Shown in pieces: positions 20,270-53,884 of a stretch of 64,000 bases of DNA. The translations under genes and the position numbers were made by a program. Within the stretch, counting starts at the first letter, position 1; the number at the start of each line of letters is the position of its first letter. Origin of the DNA: an uncultured Cytophagales bacterium (lineage in GTDB: Bacteria; Bacteroidota; Bacteroidia; Cytophagales; JAAEPT01); assembly GCA_964511645.1 (NCBI GenBank), contig CAZEGV010000002.1:2689-66688 (forward strand), read 5' to 3'. The notes below the pieces were generated by a model. The model was not told where the DNA came from. It did no database searches and worked only from the letters and a program-made list of their open reading frames with translations.

Positions 20270-20883
20270 ATGAAATATATTATAGAAAAATTTTACACAG
20301 CATTTGGGGATTTAGATGCGGATAAAATGATTGAATGTTATCATCCAGAGGTCATTTTTGAATGATCCAGCATTTGGGGTTCTGAAATAAGAGCGAGCAA
20401 AAGAAATGTGGAAAATGTTATACCATTTTAACTATAAGACAAGTCATTTATCCTGTTTGTTTTTACACTCTCTTCGTTAAAATAATTTACCGTAACCAGT
20501 TATGCTAAATCATTTTTCCTCGATTTTGCAAAAAACAATTCAATCTAAATTAGACTCATATTATAGTTAAACTGGTATTATGCCATTCTCAAAAAGAAAA
20601 AGATTTTAAAATTACTTTTTCGGATGTAAAATGTGAGAGCGAAAAAGGAACTGCAAATTGGAATGCTTACTATACGTTTAGCCAAACAGGAAGAAAAGTA
20701 CATAATGAGATTTTGGCTTCTTTTGAGTTTAAGGATGGCTTAATTATTAAACATACGGATAGTTTTGATCTCCATAAGTGGGCAAAACAAGCGATGGGTC
20801 TCAAGGGATGGTTACTTGGGAGTACTTCTTTTTTTAGGACTCAACTACAACAAAAAACAAATAGTTTACTTGATAAGTTTTAA
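20270..20883 (+). pseudogene. NTF2/SnoaL-like protein gene, disrupted by a frameshift, a stop codon and a MITE
   Basis: MKYIIEKFYTAFGDLDADKMIECYHPEVIFE is followed by TGA at 20363. The +1 frame gives DPAFGVLK, then TAA at 20388-20390, then ERAKEMWKML. After removing 20421-20577 plus one TTA, the frame continues CHSQKEKDFKITFSD...SLLDKF to the stop at 20883. Confidence 0.75.
20421..20577. mobile_element. 157-bp non-autonomous element (MITE) with terminal inverted repeats and TTA target-site duplication
   Basis: Left end is TACCATTTTAACTATAAGACAAGTC; the reverse complement of the right end is TACCAGTTTAACTATAATATGAGTC (21/25 identical). TTA flanks both sides at 20418-20420 and 20578-20580. There is no ORF inside, and excision restores the host reading frame. 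Confidence 0.75.
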
Positions 20884-20929
20884 CTAAGGGAGGTGTAGCT
20901 TTCTAGTGTCAAAATAGATTAATGTAAAC

Positions 20930-21084
20930 GCAAAAGGGATTGAAGTGGAAATCCTTTGTTGTTTTTTTGTTCTGTATTTCGACAAACTCAATATGACACA
21001 AAAAAAACAACAAAGATTGGGAACGAGAAAGCCCGACCGAATATATGGCGTAGCGTGAGCGTAGTCATGTATTGGGGGTTTGCC
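20930..21084 (+). repeat. Structured interspersed repeat, copy A
   Basis: Shares ordered conserved blocks with 40602-40740 and 53700-53884. Long A/T-rich hairpin 20950-20969 / 20999-21018; closing helix GCAAA/TTTGC. Confidence 0.75.
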
Positions 21085-22566
21085 CTAATATTTTATTTTA
21101 TTAATGAAGTATATTTTTCTTTTCTTTTTATCGGCTTCTTTATTTTTTATCTTTTGATAGCCTGTTACGATGTAATAATCGTCATACCAGTAGCTAATGC
21201 CTGTACTTGTTGTGTATTTTACTTTGTCGTTTTCACTAAGGGTTTCAATTACCGATATAGACTCATCTCTCATTGTTTTTCCGTCGTCCGAAAAGGTTTT
21301 GAAATAGATAAATGATTTTCCTGAATAAGATAGTTCTAGGTTATCATTTTCATCTACTGATTTCCTAATAAATCGTTTCACAAAAAATGGTTTGTAATCA
21401 ACATGCATCTTGAATATATTGGTCCATTCTATATCGCCTTCTTTAGTAATGGAGGAAACCAGGGCATGAGTATATAAATATCCGTCAAACACTCTTTTCG
21501 TTTTTGTGACCGATTGCCCATTTACGTAAGTAGTGTAGTGTTCCGTCCTGTAAGTGGGGACATAAAATTCAGAAACCACATAGCTTTTATTCTCTGTAAG
21601 GTAAAACCCATGTGTGGTGGCTAAGAATTTTCCATAAAGCTCTTTTCCTTTTTTTTCTTTTTTAGCTTTCTTTTTCTCAACCTTCTTTTGTCTTTTTTCT
21701 GACAAGTATTCTGTGAAATGTTCTAAATCTAAAAAGTTATGGTATTTCAATGCACTTGTTTTCCCTGCCGCAGACAATCTCCCTGTAAAAAAACCTTGAC
21801 TGTAACCTTTTCTGCTTCTAAGAGAGTAAGTCCCACTTATTAGGTATGAACCATCGTTATTGTTACTTAACCTTAAGTCTGTGATTTGTTTTTTTTCTCC
21901 CAAGTCAAATGAAAGGGGTTTTCCGATTAGTTTTGCGTGTGCATCATATTTAAAAACCAAGTGTTTATATCCTCCTTCATCTGCTTTTACTTCAAATTGT
22001 ATATGATATTCATCATCGTGCTTACCGTAAGCATCAAGATGAGGCTTTTTATACCCTGAAACGGGAAGAGCAACATCTTTGTATTTCCCTGTTTTTAAAT
22101 CAAAGCTACGTATAAAGTAGTTTTTATTCGCTTTTATAAATGCGATTAATCGTTCTTCCATCATAGAAAAACTTAGTACCGCTGATTTTTTAGGTAATAC
22201 TCCAGAAAACATTTTAGTCCCTCCTGTTTTTCTACTCACGCTTAATTTATAGGAACCTTTTTTAGAATAATTTAAGTAAACAATTTTATTTGAACTTGCG
22301 GATGATTTTCCTCGTTTTAATTTATGAGGAATTACATTTATAATTGTTTTGACAGGGTTGAGTTGACTGTCCACCCATACAATATGTCTTTCGTAATTTT
22401 TGTTTTCACCTTCTGTGTAATAGCTTATGGCACCTGTTTTGTCACTAAATACAGTAAAACTACGGTGTTTTTCAGATTCAATTCTCTTTACTAATTTTAT
22501 TTGTGCATTTGTACTCATCCACGAAAGGATGAAAAATAGACTGAAAATAGTTTTTAAATTTTTCAT
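21085..22566 (-). CDS. Secreted protein of unknown function with an internal Lys-rich segment
   Basis: Signal peptide MKNLKTIFSLFFILSWMSTNAQ; beta-rich composition; EKRQKKVEKKKAKKEKKGKE insert; no recognisable domain. Confidence 0.6.
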   Translation of the reverse strand: MKNLKTIFSLFFILSWMSTNAQIKLVKRIESEKHRSFTVFSDKTGAISYYTEGENKNYERHIVWVDSQLNPVKTIINVIPHKLKRGKSSASSNKIVYLNYSKKGSYKLSVSRKTGGTKMFSGVLPKKSAVLSFSMMEERLIAFIKANKNYFIRSFDLKTGKYKDVALPVSGYKKPHLDAYGKHDDEYHIQFEVKADEGGYKHLVFKYDAHAKLIGKPLSFDLGEKKQITDLRLSNNNDGSYLISGTYSLRSRKGYSQGFFTGRLSAAGKTSALKYHNFLDLEHFTEYLSEKRQKKVEKKKAKKEKKGKELYGKFLATTHGFYLTENKSYVVSEFYVPTYRTEHYTTYVNGQSVTKTKRVFDGYLYTHALVSSITKEGDIEWTNIFKMHVDYKPFFVKRFIRKSVDENDNLELSYSGKSFIYFKTFSDDGKTMRDESISVIETLSENDKVKYTTSTGISYWYDDYYIVTGYQKIKNKEADKKKRKIYFINKIKY

Positions 22567-25655: not shown

Positions 25656-25659
25656 GAAG

Positions 25660-25730
25660 AGGCGTCTGGCGGATTCGAACCGCCGTAGATGGTTTTGCAG
25701 ACCACTGCCTAGCCACTCGGCCAAGACGCC
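25660..25730 (-). tRNA. tRNA-Cys (GCA)
   Basis: The reverse complement folds as a cloverleaf: acceptor GGCGTCT/AGACGCC, anticodon loop CTGCAAA, T-arm GGCGG-TTCGAAT-CCGCC. 71 nt, no encoded CCA. Confidence 0.92.
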
Positions 25731-40224: not shown

Positions 40225-40584
40225 ATGAAACGGACACTAATATTAGGGGCGACTACAAATATTGAGCGTTACGCTTACAAGGCCGCAAAACGATTAACTC
40301 AGCACAAACACCCTATTGTGCCTGTTGGAATCAAAAAAGGTGAAGTATTTGGGGAAGTTATTTTGAATACTAAGGATTTACAAAAAGAGATTGATACGAT
40401 TACTTTATATGTAGGAGTTCGCCATCAACCAGAGTGGTATGGCTATATTGTTGAGACTAATCCAAGACGAGTTATCTTTAATCCTGGCACGGAGAATCCT
40501 GAACTGCAAACTCTGCTAAAGGAAAATGAAATCCCTTATGAAGAGGCTTGTACTTTGGTTTTGTTGAGTTTGAATGCTTATTAA
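40225..40584 (+). CDS. CoA-binding domain protein (YccU-like)
   Basis: 119 aa; ILGAT.N..RYAY and PV pattern. Confidence 0.65.
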   Translation: MKRTLILGATTNIERYAYKAAKRLTQHKHPIVPVGIKKGEVFGEVILNTKDLQKEIDTITLYVGVRHQPEWYGYIVETNPRRVIFNPGTENPELQTLLKENEIPYEEACTLVLLSLNAY

Positions 40585-40601: not shown

Positions 40602-40740
40602 GCGTTAGGGATTGACGTGGAAATTCTTTTTTATTTTTATACTTCGACAAGCTCAGCATGACAAAATTATAAAAATAAAAAAGATTGGGAACAAAAAGCC
40701 CGACCCCACGAGTTTGCCTTTTTGGCGAGTGGGGGAACGC
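40602..40740 (+). repeat. Structured interspersed repeat, copy B
   Basis: Same block order as copy A. Hairpin arms 40622-40641 / 40668-40686; closing helix GCGTT/AACGC. Confidence 0.75.
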
Positions 40741-40762
40741 CCAAGTTTTATTTTGAATTATA

Positions 40763-41398
40763 TTACTCTTTATTAATTAGGGTTTCTTCTGTGGGAAAGA
40801 ATTTTTTCTGATTAAACACGATATAAATCACTGAACAAAATATAGCAGCGTCTGCTACATTAAAAATAGGCCAAAGTGAATAATATGTGCTACCAAATAT
40901 TGGCCAGTCAGCTGGAGTTCGACCCCGTATAATGTCTACAAAAAACATATCAATTACTTTCCCGTGAAACCATGGTGTAGGCGGGTAAACAATGTTGCCA
41001 CTAGCATCTGTCGTTGTAACGAGTAATTTAGGGTCTAGTACAGCATAGAATATACTATCTAGTAAATTTCCTACAGCTCCGCCAAATATAAATGCTAAAC
41101 AAATTTGATAAGCCTTGTGCATCTTTTGTTTAAAAATTTTGGTGATATAATAGGCAATCCCCGTGATGGCAATAATACGAAATACTGTTAATATAATTTT
41201 ACCATATTCTCCGCCTATCTTTACTCCAAATGCCATCCCAGGGTTAGTGACGTACTGCAATTTAAAGAAATCACCAAATATAGGGATTACTGTGATGTCT
41301 TCTGTCATTGTTTGGTGTACAATATATTTGGTCAGTTGGTCTACAATGATTACTGCCAAAGAAATGAAGAAGAGTTTATATATTTTATTGTTTTTCAT
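40763..41398 (-). CDS. lspA: Lipoprotein signal peptidase (signal peptidase II)
   Basis: Four TM helices, conserved NPGMAFG and FNVAD motifs, adjacent to ileS. Confidence 0.85.
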   Translation of the reverse strand: MKNNKIYKLFFISLAVIIVDQLTKYIVHQTMTEDITVIPIFGDFFKLQYVTNPGMAFGVKIGGEYGKIILTVFRIIAITGIAYYITKIFKQKMHKAYQICLAFIFGGAVGNLLDSIFYAVLDPKLLVTTTDASGNIVYPPTPWFHGKVIDMFFVDIIRGRTPADWPIFGSTYYSLWPIFNVADAAIFCSVIYIVFNQKKFFPTEETLINKE

Positions 41399-52429: not shown

Positions 52430-53410
52430 ATGAGTGTTAAAATTGGCAATATTGATTTAGGAGAGTTTCCACTATTACTTGCTCCAATGGAAGATGTAAG
52501 TGATCCACCTTTTAGGGCTGTATGCAAAGCAAATGGTGCGGACATGATGTATACCGAATTTATCTCTTCGGAAGGGTTGATTAGAGACGCTCGAAAAAGT
52601 CGTCAGAAACTTGATATTTATGAAGATGAGAGACCTATTGGGATTCAAATATTTGGAGACAAAATAGACTCTATGCGTGAAGCGGCATCTATTGCTGAGC
52701 AAGCTAACCCAGAATTGATAGACATAAACTACGGTTGCCCTGTAAAGAAAGTGGCTTGTAAAGGAGCTGGAGCAGGGATTCTTAGAGATGTTCCCAAAAT
52801 GGAACAAATGACCCGAGAAATTGTAAAACAAGTAGATCTTCCTGTTACTGTCAAAACCCGACTCGGCTGGGATAGCGATACCGTGCAGATTGTAGAAGTC
52901 GCTTTAAGACTGCAAGATGCAGGAATCAAAGCTTTGAGTATACATGGTAGAACAAGGATGCAGATGTACAAAGGGGAAGCCGATTGGACAGAAATTGCCG
53001 CAGTCAAAAACCATCCTGATATAGAAATTCCGATTTTTGGGAACGGTGATATTGATTCACCCGAAAAAGCATTGTTATACAAAGAAAAATACAATGTAGA
53101 CGGCATTATGATTGGAAGAGCCGCCATTGGTTATCCTTGGATTTTTAATGAAATCAAACACTACCTTGCTACAGGAGAGCAACTCCCCAAACCCACAGTA
53201 AATGAACGTATTATTGCCTGTGAGCAACACCTCAACTTCTCTCTTAGTTGGAAAGGAGAGCGGCAAGGAGTCTTAGAAATGAGGAGACATTACACCAATT
53301 ATTTTAAAGGAATGACAAATTTTAAACCATTCAGGACTCGATTGGTAGAGACATTAGAACCTAACGAAATTAAGCAAATTTTGACCGAAGTAAAAGGATA
53401 TTATAGTTGA
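52430..53410 (+). CDS. dusB: tRNA-dihydrouridine synthase
   Basis: LAPMEDV.D..FR, INYGCP.KKV and HGRT motifs. Confidence 0.85.
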   Translation: MSVKIGNIDLGEFPLLLAPMEDVSDPPFRAVCKANGADMMYTEFISSEGLIRDARKSRQKLDIYEDERPIGIQIFGDKIDSMREAASIAEQANPELIDINYGCPVKKVACKGAGAGILRDVPKMEQMTREIVKQVDLPVTVKTRLGWDSDTVQIVEVALRLQDAGIKALSIHGRTRMQMYKGEADWTEIAAVKNHPDIEIPIFGNGDIDSPEKALLYKEKYNVDGIMIGRAAIGYPWIFNEIKHYLATGEQLPKPTVNERIIACEQHLNFSLSWKGERQGVLEMRRHYTNYFKGMTNFKPFRTRLVETLEPNEIKQILTEVKGYYS

Positions 53411-53691
53411 TGAACCCAATTAAAATAAGCGATCGAGCGCTAACCGAAATCAAAAATATTTTTGACACCAAAGGCATTCCATCTGATTATTGCCTCAGAA
53501 TTACCGTAAAAGGTAGTGGATGTGCCGGAATTAATCACGCTATTGGTTTTGATAAACTTGGAGACAATGACGAACAATACGACTATGATGGATTGAAAGT
53601 AATCATCAACAAAAAAGACTTTATGCACCTTATTGGTGTTTCTGTGGACTTTACAGAAAGTAATGATGTCACGGGATTTGTTTTTAGTTAA
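53407..53691 (+). CDS. HesB/IscA-like protein lacking the C-terminal Cys-Gly-Cys motif
   Basis: LRITVKGSGCAG core and ...DVTGFVF near the end, but the ORF stops where family members continue with NPNA...CGCG.SF. Confidence 0.6.
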   Translation: MMNPIKISDRALTEIKNIFDTKGIPSDYCLRITVKGSGCAGINHAIGFDKLGDNDEQYDYDGLKVIINKKDFMHLIGVSVDFTESNDVTGFVFS

Positions 53692-53699
53692 ATTGTGGG

Positions 53700-53884
53700 A
53701 GCTTCCCTATCGTTTCACTCTCGTGGCTATTTCGCCCCAACGGTCGGGTCATTCGTTCCCAATCTTTGTTGTTTTTATGATTCTCCCATACTGAGCCTGT
53801 TAGTATCAGCATGAGCTTGCCGAAGATAAAATGAACTTTATCCGTAAAAAAACAACAAAGGATTTCCACTGCTACCCCTAAGCC
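53700..53884 (-). repeat. Structured interspersed repeat, copy C (inverted orientation, expanded apex)
   Basis: The reverse complement carries the same ordered blocks. Hairpin arms 53761-53780 / 53845-53864; closing helix GGCTT/AAGCT. Confidence 0.75.

Follow-up and report, generated by a model that had tools for sequence, protein, structure and literature searches.

The window analysed here is a 64-kb stretch of DNA from an uncultured Cytophagales bacterium (contig CAZEGV010000002.1, positions 2,689 to 66,688), in which a first-pass annotation had picked out three structured repeat loci, two on the plus strand (copies A and B) and one on the minus strand (copy C). We scanned the window with the covariance models of Rfam 15 and found that the three loci are almost certainly copies of the Flavo-1 element (RF01705; Weinberg 2010). 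Copies A and B scored 47.4 and 46.0 bits, above the Flavo-1 gathering score of 42 bits, while copy C scored 38.4 bits (E = 1.2e−6 in a 601-nt search), just under it because of a 74-nt apical insert. The annotation was therefore wrong in finding no named Rfam match. The family itself is already catalogued and novelty at family level is gone, a significant hit to a described RNA family being the outcome which the annotation had named as speaking against its proposal.

Alignment confirmed the loci, their strands and the order of their common blocks: AGGG..GTGGAAAT, an A/T-rich long stem, an apical TTCGACAAGCTCA..ATGA module, GATTGGGAAC...CCCGACC and a variable 3′ hairpin ending in a G-run, the whole flanked by closing arms. 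The pattern GATTGGGAACN{3,12}CCCGA matched the window three times, exactly at copies A, B and C, with 0 matches expected from shuffled sequence. The copies share with the published motif its conserved blocks (GGGAU..GAAG.GG..; ..AGCCCGACC; PMC2864571), its long hairpin with conserved internal-loop sequences and covarying stems (as seen in the cmscan alignments and the pairing statistics below), its phylum and its habit of lying in many intergenic copies (3 in 64 kb here and 128 in Flavobacterium psychrophilum). They differ from the RF01705 model in their apical inserts of 27–74 nt, a closing helix (P0), a second hairpin (P2) and a CC(A/T)AA tail. The minimum-free-energy fold of copy A (z = −3.09) contained the pairings previously drawn for it, and copies B and C also folded into the drawn stems. 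The conserved unit reaches about 4–5 nt further 3′ than was first marked, through the tail (Table 1).

Copy A is placed between a disrupted plus-strand gene and a minus-strand gene, the TAG stop codon of which is the CTA at 21085–21087 in the copy A tail. The neighbours of copy B converge on it, and copy C lies between two plus-strand genes, with its 3′ end 3 nt from the stop codon of the first of them. The open reading frames (ORFs) which had been drawn across the copies, and described as unconserved between them, are spurious artefacts; the one in copy B reads LRQAQHDK, in agreement with the suggestion that the apical motif is mistranslated elsewhere as an RQAQ.D-type peptide. The window annotation should carry Flavo-1 (RF01705) at the three loci in place of these ORFs. 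The sole other RNA family detected in the window was a tRNA-Cys (GCA).

Table 1 Flavo-1 copies, their parts and neighbouring features in the window
Feature	Positions	Strand	Evidence or remark
Copy A, whole unit, closing arm to CCTAA tail	20930..21088	+	Rfam match 20922-21042, 47.4 bits; extended model R1 90.5 bits at 20930-21087; fold
Copy A, P0 5′ arm GCAAA	20930..20934	+	Pairs with TTTGC 21079-21083
Copy A, long hairpin P1, GGG to CCC, with conserved purine-rich internal loops and variable apex	20936..21034	+	Rfam consensus structure; fold
Copy A, apical module TTCGACAAACTCAATATGAC, optional insert outside the Rfam model	20978..20997	+	Rfam treats 31 nt here as insertion
Copy A, variable 3′ hairpin P2, with G.T wobbles	21037..21078	+	Fold; sequence
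Copy A, P0 3′ arm TTTGC and conserved tail CCTAA	21079..21088	+	Sequence
Copy B, whole unit	40602..40745	+	Rfam 46.0 bits; R1 114.7 bits
Copy B, P0 5′ arm GCGTT	40602..40606	+	
Copy B, apical module	40643..40662	+	
Copy B, P2	40704..40735	+	
Copy B, P0 3′ arm AACGC	40736..40740	+	Followed by tail CCAAG
Copy C, whole unit	53695..53884	-	Rfam 38.4 bits; R1 93.0 bits
Copy C, P0 5′ arm GGCTT	53884..53880	-	
Copy C, apical module region	53790..53832	-	Within 74-nt apex; two module-like repeats
Copy C, P0 3′ arm AAGCT	53704..53700	-	One G.T pair; followed by tail CCCAC
Gene with stop codon in copy A tail	21085..22566	-	
CoA-binding-protein gene	40225..40584	+	
lspA-like gene	40763..41398	-	
Gene with stop codon next to copy C	53407..53691	+	
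Miniature inverted-repeat transposable element	20418..20583		18-bp terminal inverted repeats; TTA duplication
NTF2/SnoaL-like gene, two pieces	20270..20365 and 20587..20883		
tRNA-Cys (GCA)	25659..25730	-	

The 2010 description of Flavo-1 was computational: it presented a probable non-cis-regulatory RNA of the Bacteroidetes with 239 members and did not address its function (Weinberg et al. 2010, PMC2864571). A transcriptome study of F. psychrophilum reported 128 matches with “no real clues” and many copies outside transcribed regions (PMC9723704), papers after 2010 merely list the motif, and we found no alternative name or function for the element in the literature. It is a dispersed repeat with a density of roughly one copy per 20–40 kb. 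The closest named relatives of the isoleucyl-tRNA synthetase (IleRS) of our host are from Cytophagales, Fulvivirga and Roseivirga (67–74% identity), and to judge by these protein sequences the host is a Cytophagales-like member of the Bacteroidota and not a flavobacterium.

Flavo-1 as a three-way junction

Further copies were gathered from several sources. A stricter pattern run on metagenome contigs gave 31 loci, most from one metagenome, of which 28 were real copies, and a covariance model built from 16 copies (R1) gave 38 good matches over the metagenome loci, including six missed by the pattern. Viral contigs scanned for GCGTGAGGGAT...AGCCCGACC, with the 5′ arm specified as GCGTG and the 3′ arm left free, yielded 21 further loci with Flavo-1 of the classical type. 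A separate scan of viral contigs with the window-type 3′ block gave no matches. Ten members of the 2010 alignment were taken with their flanks from the supplement of PMC2864571. The loose pattern GATTGGGAACN{4,9}CCCGA (15 specified bases) was abandoned: on genome contigs it returned at least 117 loci, essentially all of them chance matches in unrelated phyla.

The complete Flavo-1 unit is a three-way junction. It consists of the 5-bp closing helix P0, a long hairpin (P1) which has conserved purine-rich internal loops and an apex tolerant of any insert, the short variable hairpin P2 after GCCCGACC, and a conserved single-stranded CC(A/T)AA tail after P0. In all sets, the five bases 5′ of the invariant A-GGG were complementary to the five bases 3′ of the hairpin which follows GCCCGACC. 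P0 differed in sequence between copies while complementarity was kept: it was paired at 5/5 positions in 30 of 32 copies, which carried seven different pairs of arms (GCGTT/AACGC, GCGTG/CACGC, GGCTT/AAGCC or AAGCT, GCAAA/TTTGC, GCATT/AATGC, GCATG/CATGC and GGCAT/ATGCT). On the model alignment, with 39 distinct copies, 98.4% of P0 cells were paired and four of the five pairs had changes on both sides. Over the whole structure 97.3% of cells were paired, vs 85.6% in shuffles, and 11 pairs had compensatory changes, whereas none of 500 shuffles gave as many; when partner columns were slid by one, pairing fell to about 54%. An independent test came from the phage-contig copies, which had been chosen on the GCGTG 5′ arm only and which carried CACGC at the predicted place in 20 of 21 cases, and the same P0 arms flanked 10/10 diverse members of the 2010 alignment. 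The first-pass annotation had seen a closing helix that stays complementary despite sequence change in three copies and had cautioned that helices of 4–5 bp might arise by chance; with more copies aligned, a chance origin is excluded, and the covariation of the closing helix supports the proposal that selection acts on the fold and not on sequence alone.

Both the Rfam consensus and the 2010 alignment stop at GCCCGACC and mark the flanks as unpaired, therefore P0, P2 and the tail extend the published motif. Among 31 copies, the tail reads C (29 copies), C (27 copies), A or T, A (27 copies) and A. A resemblance to the CCA end of a tRNA was considered and dropped, as only about 60% of copies have CCA and about 30% have CCT. 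In 26 of 30 copies the Rfam strand gave a more stable fold than its complement did (mean −39.4 vs −34.3 kcal/mol, p = 1.6e−5) and the core helices contained 15 G.T vs 5 A.C, which moderately supports the annotated strand as the one that folds.

Copies differ widely at the tip of P1, where the shortest loop has 5 nt and the longest apices exceed 90 nt. The module TTCGACAAGCTCAGCATGAC is optional here, being present one to three times in either orientation, and within the window it occurs inside Flavo-1 copies only. An orthologous locus could be compared between two organisms (flanking genes about 90% identical): the core was kept, P2 carried a compensatory change and the apex was entirely different, so that the apex is free to vary while the base is constrained. 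At one locus a 165-bp miniature inverted-repeat transposable element (MITE) has landed within the apex (L137, 13801–13957). The apical module, which can be written (T)TCGACAAGCTCAGCATGAC, acts as a separate small unit that is absent or present one to three times (Table 1; loci L125, L137, L128 and L134). In reverse orientation it forms a hairpin with the loop GAGCTTGTCGA, and a similar sequence (UUCGACUCCGCUCAGGAUGACAAG) lies upstream of the F. johnsoniae copies in the 2010 alignment.

A second subfamily was observed in the same metagenome organism (L137 4707–4852, L128 66–212, L134 7710–7853 and L130 3735–3876). Its loop sequences are GTAGCGGCATCC ... GATATAGCG, those of the window type being GAAGTGGAAATCC ... 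GATTGGGAAC, and one helix pair differs between the two by compensatory changes. Of about 20 clear copies belonging to the F. johnsoniae / F. psychrophilum type (L165–L184), only 4 passed the gathering threshold of Rfam 15. In its present form the model thus covers just part of the 2010 family, and it could be extended to take in the many classical members which are now missed. Classical copies are present in IMG/VR viral contigs (L165–L185), including a fragment of a Mu-like phage with MuA-, MuB- and Gam-like genes which has three copies in 9 kb (L174), and the related phages L176, L177 and L178 retain a copy at the same position.

Boundaries and placement beside stop codons

Flavo-1 is copied as exactly the folded unit, without terminal inverted repeats (TIRs) or a target-site duplication (TSD). 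Two metagenome copies (L132 and L142) share 99% identity along 188 nt that begin with the first base of P0 and end with the tail CCA, and their flanks matched no better than unrelated flanks. No flanking direct repeats or TSD were found in 31 copies, nor any TIR beyond the variable 5-bp P0 with its seven arm types; the simple TIR/TSD transposon ends which the first-pass annotation had raised as a counter-finding were thus not seen. Flavo-1 repeats break short-read assemblies: an independent assembly of the same organism (L149, Logan SRR8439058) stops 114 nt past the CoA-binding gene, within copy B.

A break of this kind, along with the short, non-coding, intergenic and multi-copy character of the element, would also suit an ordinary MITE left by a cut-and-paste (DDE) transposon. 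This explanation is already largely refuted and we consider it very improbable, given that there is no TSD in the 31 copies, that P0 covaries rather than being conserved and is not extended by any TIR, and that the core is conserved across Bacteroidota classes. A genuine MITE of the same genome, lying in the window 350 nt from a Flavo-1 copy, served as a positive control and looks quite different, with a length of 165 bp, 18-bp TIRs (ATACCATTTTAACTATAA...) and a TTA duplication. This MITE splits an NTF2/SnoaL-like gene, with the N-terminal MKYIIEKFYTAF..ERAKEMWKML before it and CHSQKEKDFKITFSD...LDKF after it, and its copies, up to 98.8% identical, occur at many loci of metagenome Ga0256845.

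The position of Flavo-1 relative to genes is strictly polar: the element is almost always antisense to the upstream gene and abuts its stop codon. In the Rfam orientation, the gene 3′ of the element was on the opposite strand in 27 of 34 scorable copies (p = 8e−4), with its stop codon at a median of about 12 nt from the element and, in three cases, inside the tail. Between co-directional genes, the element was antisense to both genes in 15 cases and sense in 0 in the window and metagenome loci, antisense in 8–10 (8 with orthologous loci merged) and sense in 2 on viral contigs, and antisense in 10 and sense in 0 among the first 19 annotated matches of F. psychrophilum, or about 33 antisense vs 2 sense in all sets together. 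In F. psychrophilum the 3′ end of Flavo-1 usually lies 0–35 nt from the upstream stop codon. The earlier remark that each window copy lies within 0–22 nt of a stop codon is true, and forms part of this general rule. Copy C opposes the majority gene strand of the window, and both orientations occur within one 400-kb stretch of the F. psychrophilum chromosome. A replication-linked orientation is ruled out by these copies, which follow their local genes; orientation therefore follows local transcription and not replication. It also follows from the polar antisense placement that messenger RNAs carry the reverse complement of Flavo-1.

Expression and the choice between small RNA, cis element and dispersed repeat

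We used published strand-specific array data for F. psychrophilum (Table S3, PMC9723704; array floor 3.9) to compare the two strands. At tandem sites in broth, the Rfam strand gave signals of 3.9–6.6 and the opposite strand 8.8–11.4, within the operon transcript, and transcripts continued across Flavo-1 into the next gene. The annotated strand is thus silent at tandem sites in this one species in broth. A different signal was found on agar plates: the own-strand probes of flavo-1_0003, 0005, 0007, 0010, 0012 and 0013 belong to one tight co-expression cluster (A1747) and rise from about 6–8 in broth to 10–13 on agar, with a profile like that of tRNA-Cys. The cause may be a genuine stable RNA made by a few copies, or else cross-hybridisation among the repeats.

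The agar signals are of consequence for the possibility that Flavo-1 is a small-RNA family read from the annotated strand, as in its Rfam classification (Gene; sRNA). Since this strand is antisense to intercistronic spacers and 3′ ends in many operons, expressed copies could then act antisense on about 100 mRNAs with complementary sequence. Covariation and the better folding of the Rfam strand are in keeping with this, as is the expression of divergent and convergent copies (Flavo-1_0009 at 10.5–13.3, 0004 and 0005 at 8–9). We nevertheless think it unlikely, as all 10 tandem-site copies were at or near the array background in broth, there are about 128 copies per genome, and the transcriptome authors placed many of these outside transcribed regions (PMC9723704). 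Furthermore, consensus scans and flank composition gave no conserved promoter upstream (neither sigma-70-like nor a Bacteroidota −7 box), and there was no terminator downstream, no consistent hairpin with a U-tract being found on either strand; the tail after P0 is CCAAA. On whether RNA or single-stranded DNA (ssDNA) is the molecule which folds, an alternative which the first-pass annotation had left standing, the polarity and the expression data argue against a conventional small-RNA gene.

Flavo-1 could also have a function in cis at transcript ends, with the messenger RNA as the working molecule. The reverse complement could be a stabiliser or processing site in 3′ untranslated regions and between cistrons, or the annotated strand could be a one-way block against antisense or read-through transcription. 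The distance of 0–35 nt from stop codons, the strict polarity relative to transcription (only 2 of about 35 copies between co-directional genes are sense) and the presence of the reverse complement within operon transcripts (“intra” and “3prime” segments, 8.8–11.4) all agree with such a function. It is doubtful all the same: transcript levels carry on across the element in F. psychrophilum, G.T pairs and folding energy favour the strand which is absent from the mRNA, and neither strand resembles an intrinsic terminator, P0 being followed by an A-rich tail and no U-tract. The intrinsic-terminator reading was itself rejected for want of a G+C-rich stem directly before a U-tract.

Integron attC sites suggest another comparison, by analogy, in which Flavo-1 would serve a tyrosine recombinase as a recombination site folded from a single strand. 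Like attC, Flavo-1 lies directly after stop codons, has its folding strand antisense to the gene, keeps structure over sequence, and has a variable terminal loop and conserved unpaired bases, so that the geometry matches. At locus L132 a gene similar to Xer and integron integrases starts 90 nt from the copy (NF040815 score 226.7, cut-off 220), and three contigs share the recombinase 5′ flank and a Flavo-1 copy and diverge exactly at the 3′ end of the element, one of them being a mosaic with a crossover in the conserved 5′ block. We regard this explanation as improbable, since the RYYYAAC/GTTRRRY boxes found at the stem base of attC (the R and L box consensus) are absent from the copies, the neighbours are housekeeping genes without cassette arrays, the 64-kb window contains no recombinase, and homologous recombinase loci in Kordia (Kordia algicida) and two metagenomic sets contain no Flavo-1. 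A general link to the recombinase was rejected on account of these homologous loci.

Several observations were made on the recombinase loci in their own right. The L132 gene (11342–12652, +) encodes 436 aa with PF00589 and PF13495 domains. The contigs L122, L142 and L139 end at Flavo-1 beside a related recombinase 5′ flank, which suggests a multi-copy unit, and L142 looks like a recombinant between two variants. Around the recombinase homologues P0122 and P0124 (L155–L159 and L160–L162), the upstream gene and the recombinase are the same across samples while the downstream genes differ, and this variable downstream content is an integron-like pattern in Bacteroidota. Directly behind the recombinase there is a match to the Rfam motif DUF805b (L156 3930–3965, 46.5 bits; L157 4041–4072, weaker).

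Flavo-1 as a proposed REP-like dispersed element

Our preferred reading is that Flavo-1 works as a dispersed element of the repetitive extragenic palindromic (REP)/REPIN type and not as an ordinary small-RNA gene, to which we give a probability of roughly 45%. On this reading the single-stranded fold would be recognised by a trans-acting enzyme or host protein, which would copy or maintain the repeat through an ssDNA or RNA intermediate; the element would persist in the space just 3′ of genes, and most copies would not be free-standing small-RNA genes. A more specific form, that Flavo-1 is the Bacteroidota counterpart of REP rather than a small-RNA family, a three-way-junction repeat which is copied as a folded single strand and docks after stop codons in fixed polarity, is tentative and falls somewhat short of an even chance. 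In its boldest version, Flavo-1 would be a folded-strand substrate on which some enzyme of recombination or transposition acts, comparable to attC or to IS200/IS605 ends.

The likeness to REP, BIME and REPIN sequences (with their RAYT or TnpA_REP proteins) lies in being a high-copy extragenic hairpin repeat near gene 3′ ends without TIR or TSD, with a conserved stem base and variable apex, long-term persistence in the lineage and transcription within operon mRNAs. Unlike REP, Flavo-1 is not a simple imperfect palindrome or inverted doublet but an asymmetric three-way junction, in which the two strands of P1 carry different conserved loops; it lacks a GTAG-type 5′ motif, is strictly polar relative to transcription and, in the window and the scattered loci covered, is not linked with a RAYT gene. 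PATEs derived from IS200/IS605 (Y1 HUH) share with it the absence of TIR and TSD, a strand-specific fold, short conserved end nucleotides and two hairpins (P1 and P2 here). They differ in that P1 and P2 are dissimilar, the ends of Flavo-1 are paired in P0, its orientation follows genes and not replication, and no tnpA was found in the window or the scattered loci. Nor was a fixed 5′ target of 4–5 nt identified, T at −1 of P0 alone being enriched (22 of 31 copies); on the 3′ side CC(A/T)A hardly varies but could be part of the element itself. Modularity, seen in Flavo-1 as the optional apical module with 0–3 copies in either orientation, and co-transcription with neighbours are shared with the pneumococcal BOX and RUP and the neisserial Correia elements; Correia and RUP however have TIRs and TSDs, and BOX has neither a three-way junction nor comparable polarity.

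It should be noted that several points weigh against the REP-type reading. Mobility would follow only from near-identical copies in different flanks, a pattern of sequences which gene conversion could mimic. No precise empty site for copy B was recovered among the loci compared: the lspA product has no exact entry on record, non-self proteins reach at best 70–82% identity to the CoA-binding protein and IleRS and are encoded at loci that are not syntenic, and at one locus (L164) a different gene, convergent with lspA, follows it after 7 nt. The 64-kb window and the scattered loci yielded no transposase, RAYT or other partner gene, and no genome-wide search for one was made. The better-folding strand is antisense to local genes, which is at odds with simple models where insertion takes place in the non-template strand or in the lagging-strand template, and orientation is set by local genes and not by replichore. 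The core sequence is conserved across Bacteroidota classes, more than most selfish repeats show. Finally, transcription of the Rfam strand into a stable RNA may lie behind the agar-plate signals of 10–13.

Few small-RNA families in Rfam are as abundant as Flavo-1, yet the motif has stayed an orphan since 2010. The complete three-way-junction unit with its covarying closing helix and the near-perfect polarity together change which Flavo-1 experiments make sense and make its function easier to test. They make a protein which binds the folded strand, and orientation-dependent effects on operon transcripts, worth looking for, and they suggest that not every match need be treated as an expressed small RNA. 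If the REP-counterpart form of our reading is true, some 100 operon transcripts per genome would carry the complement of Flavo-1.

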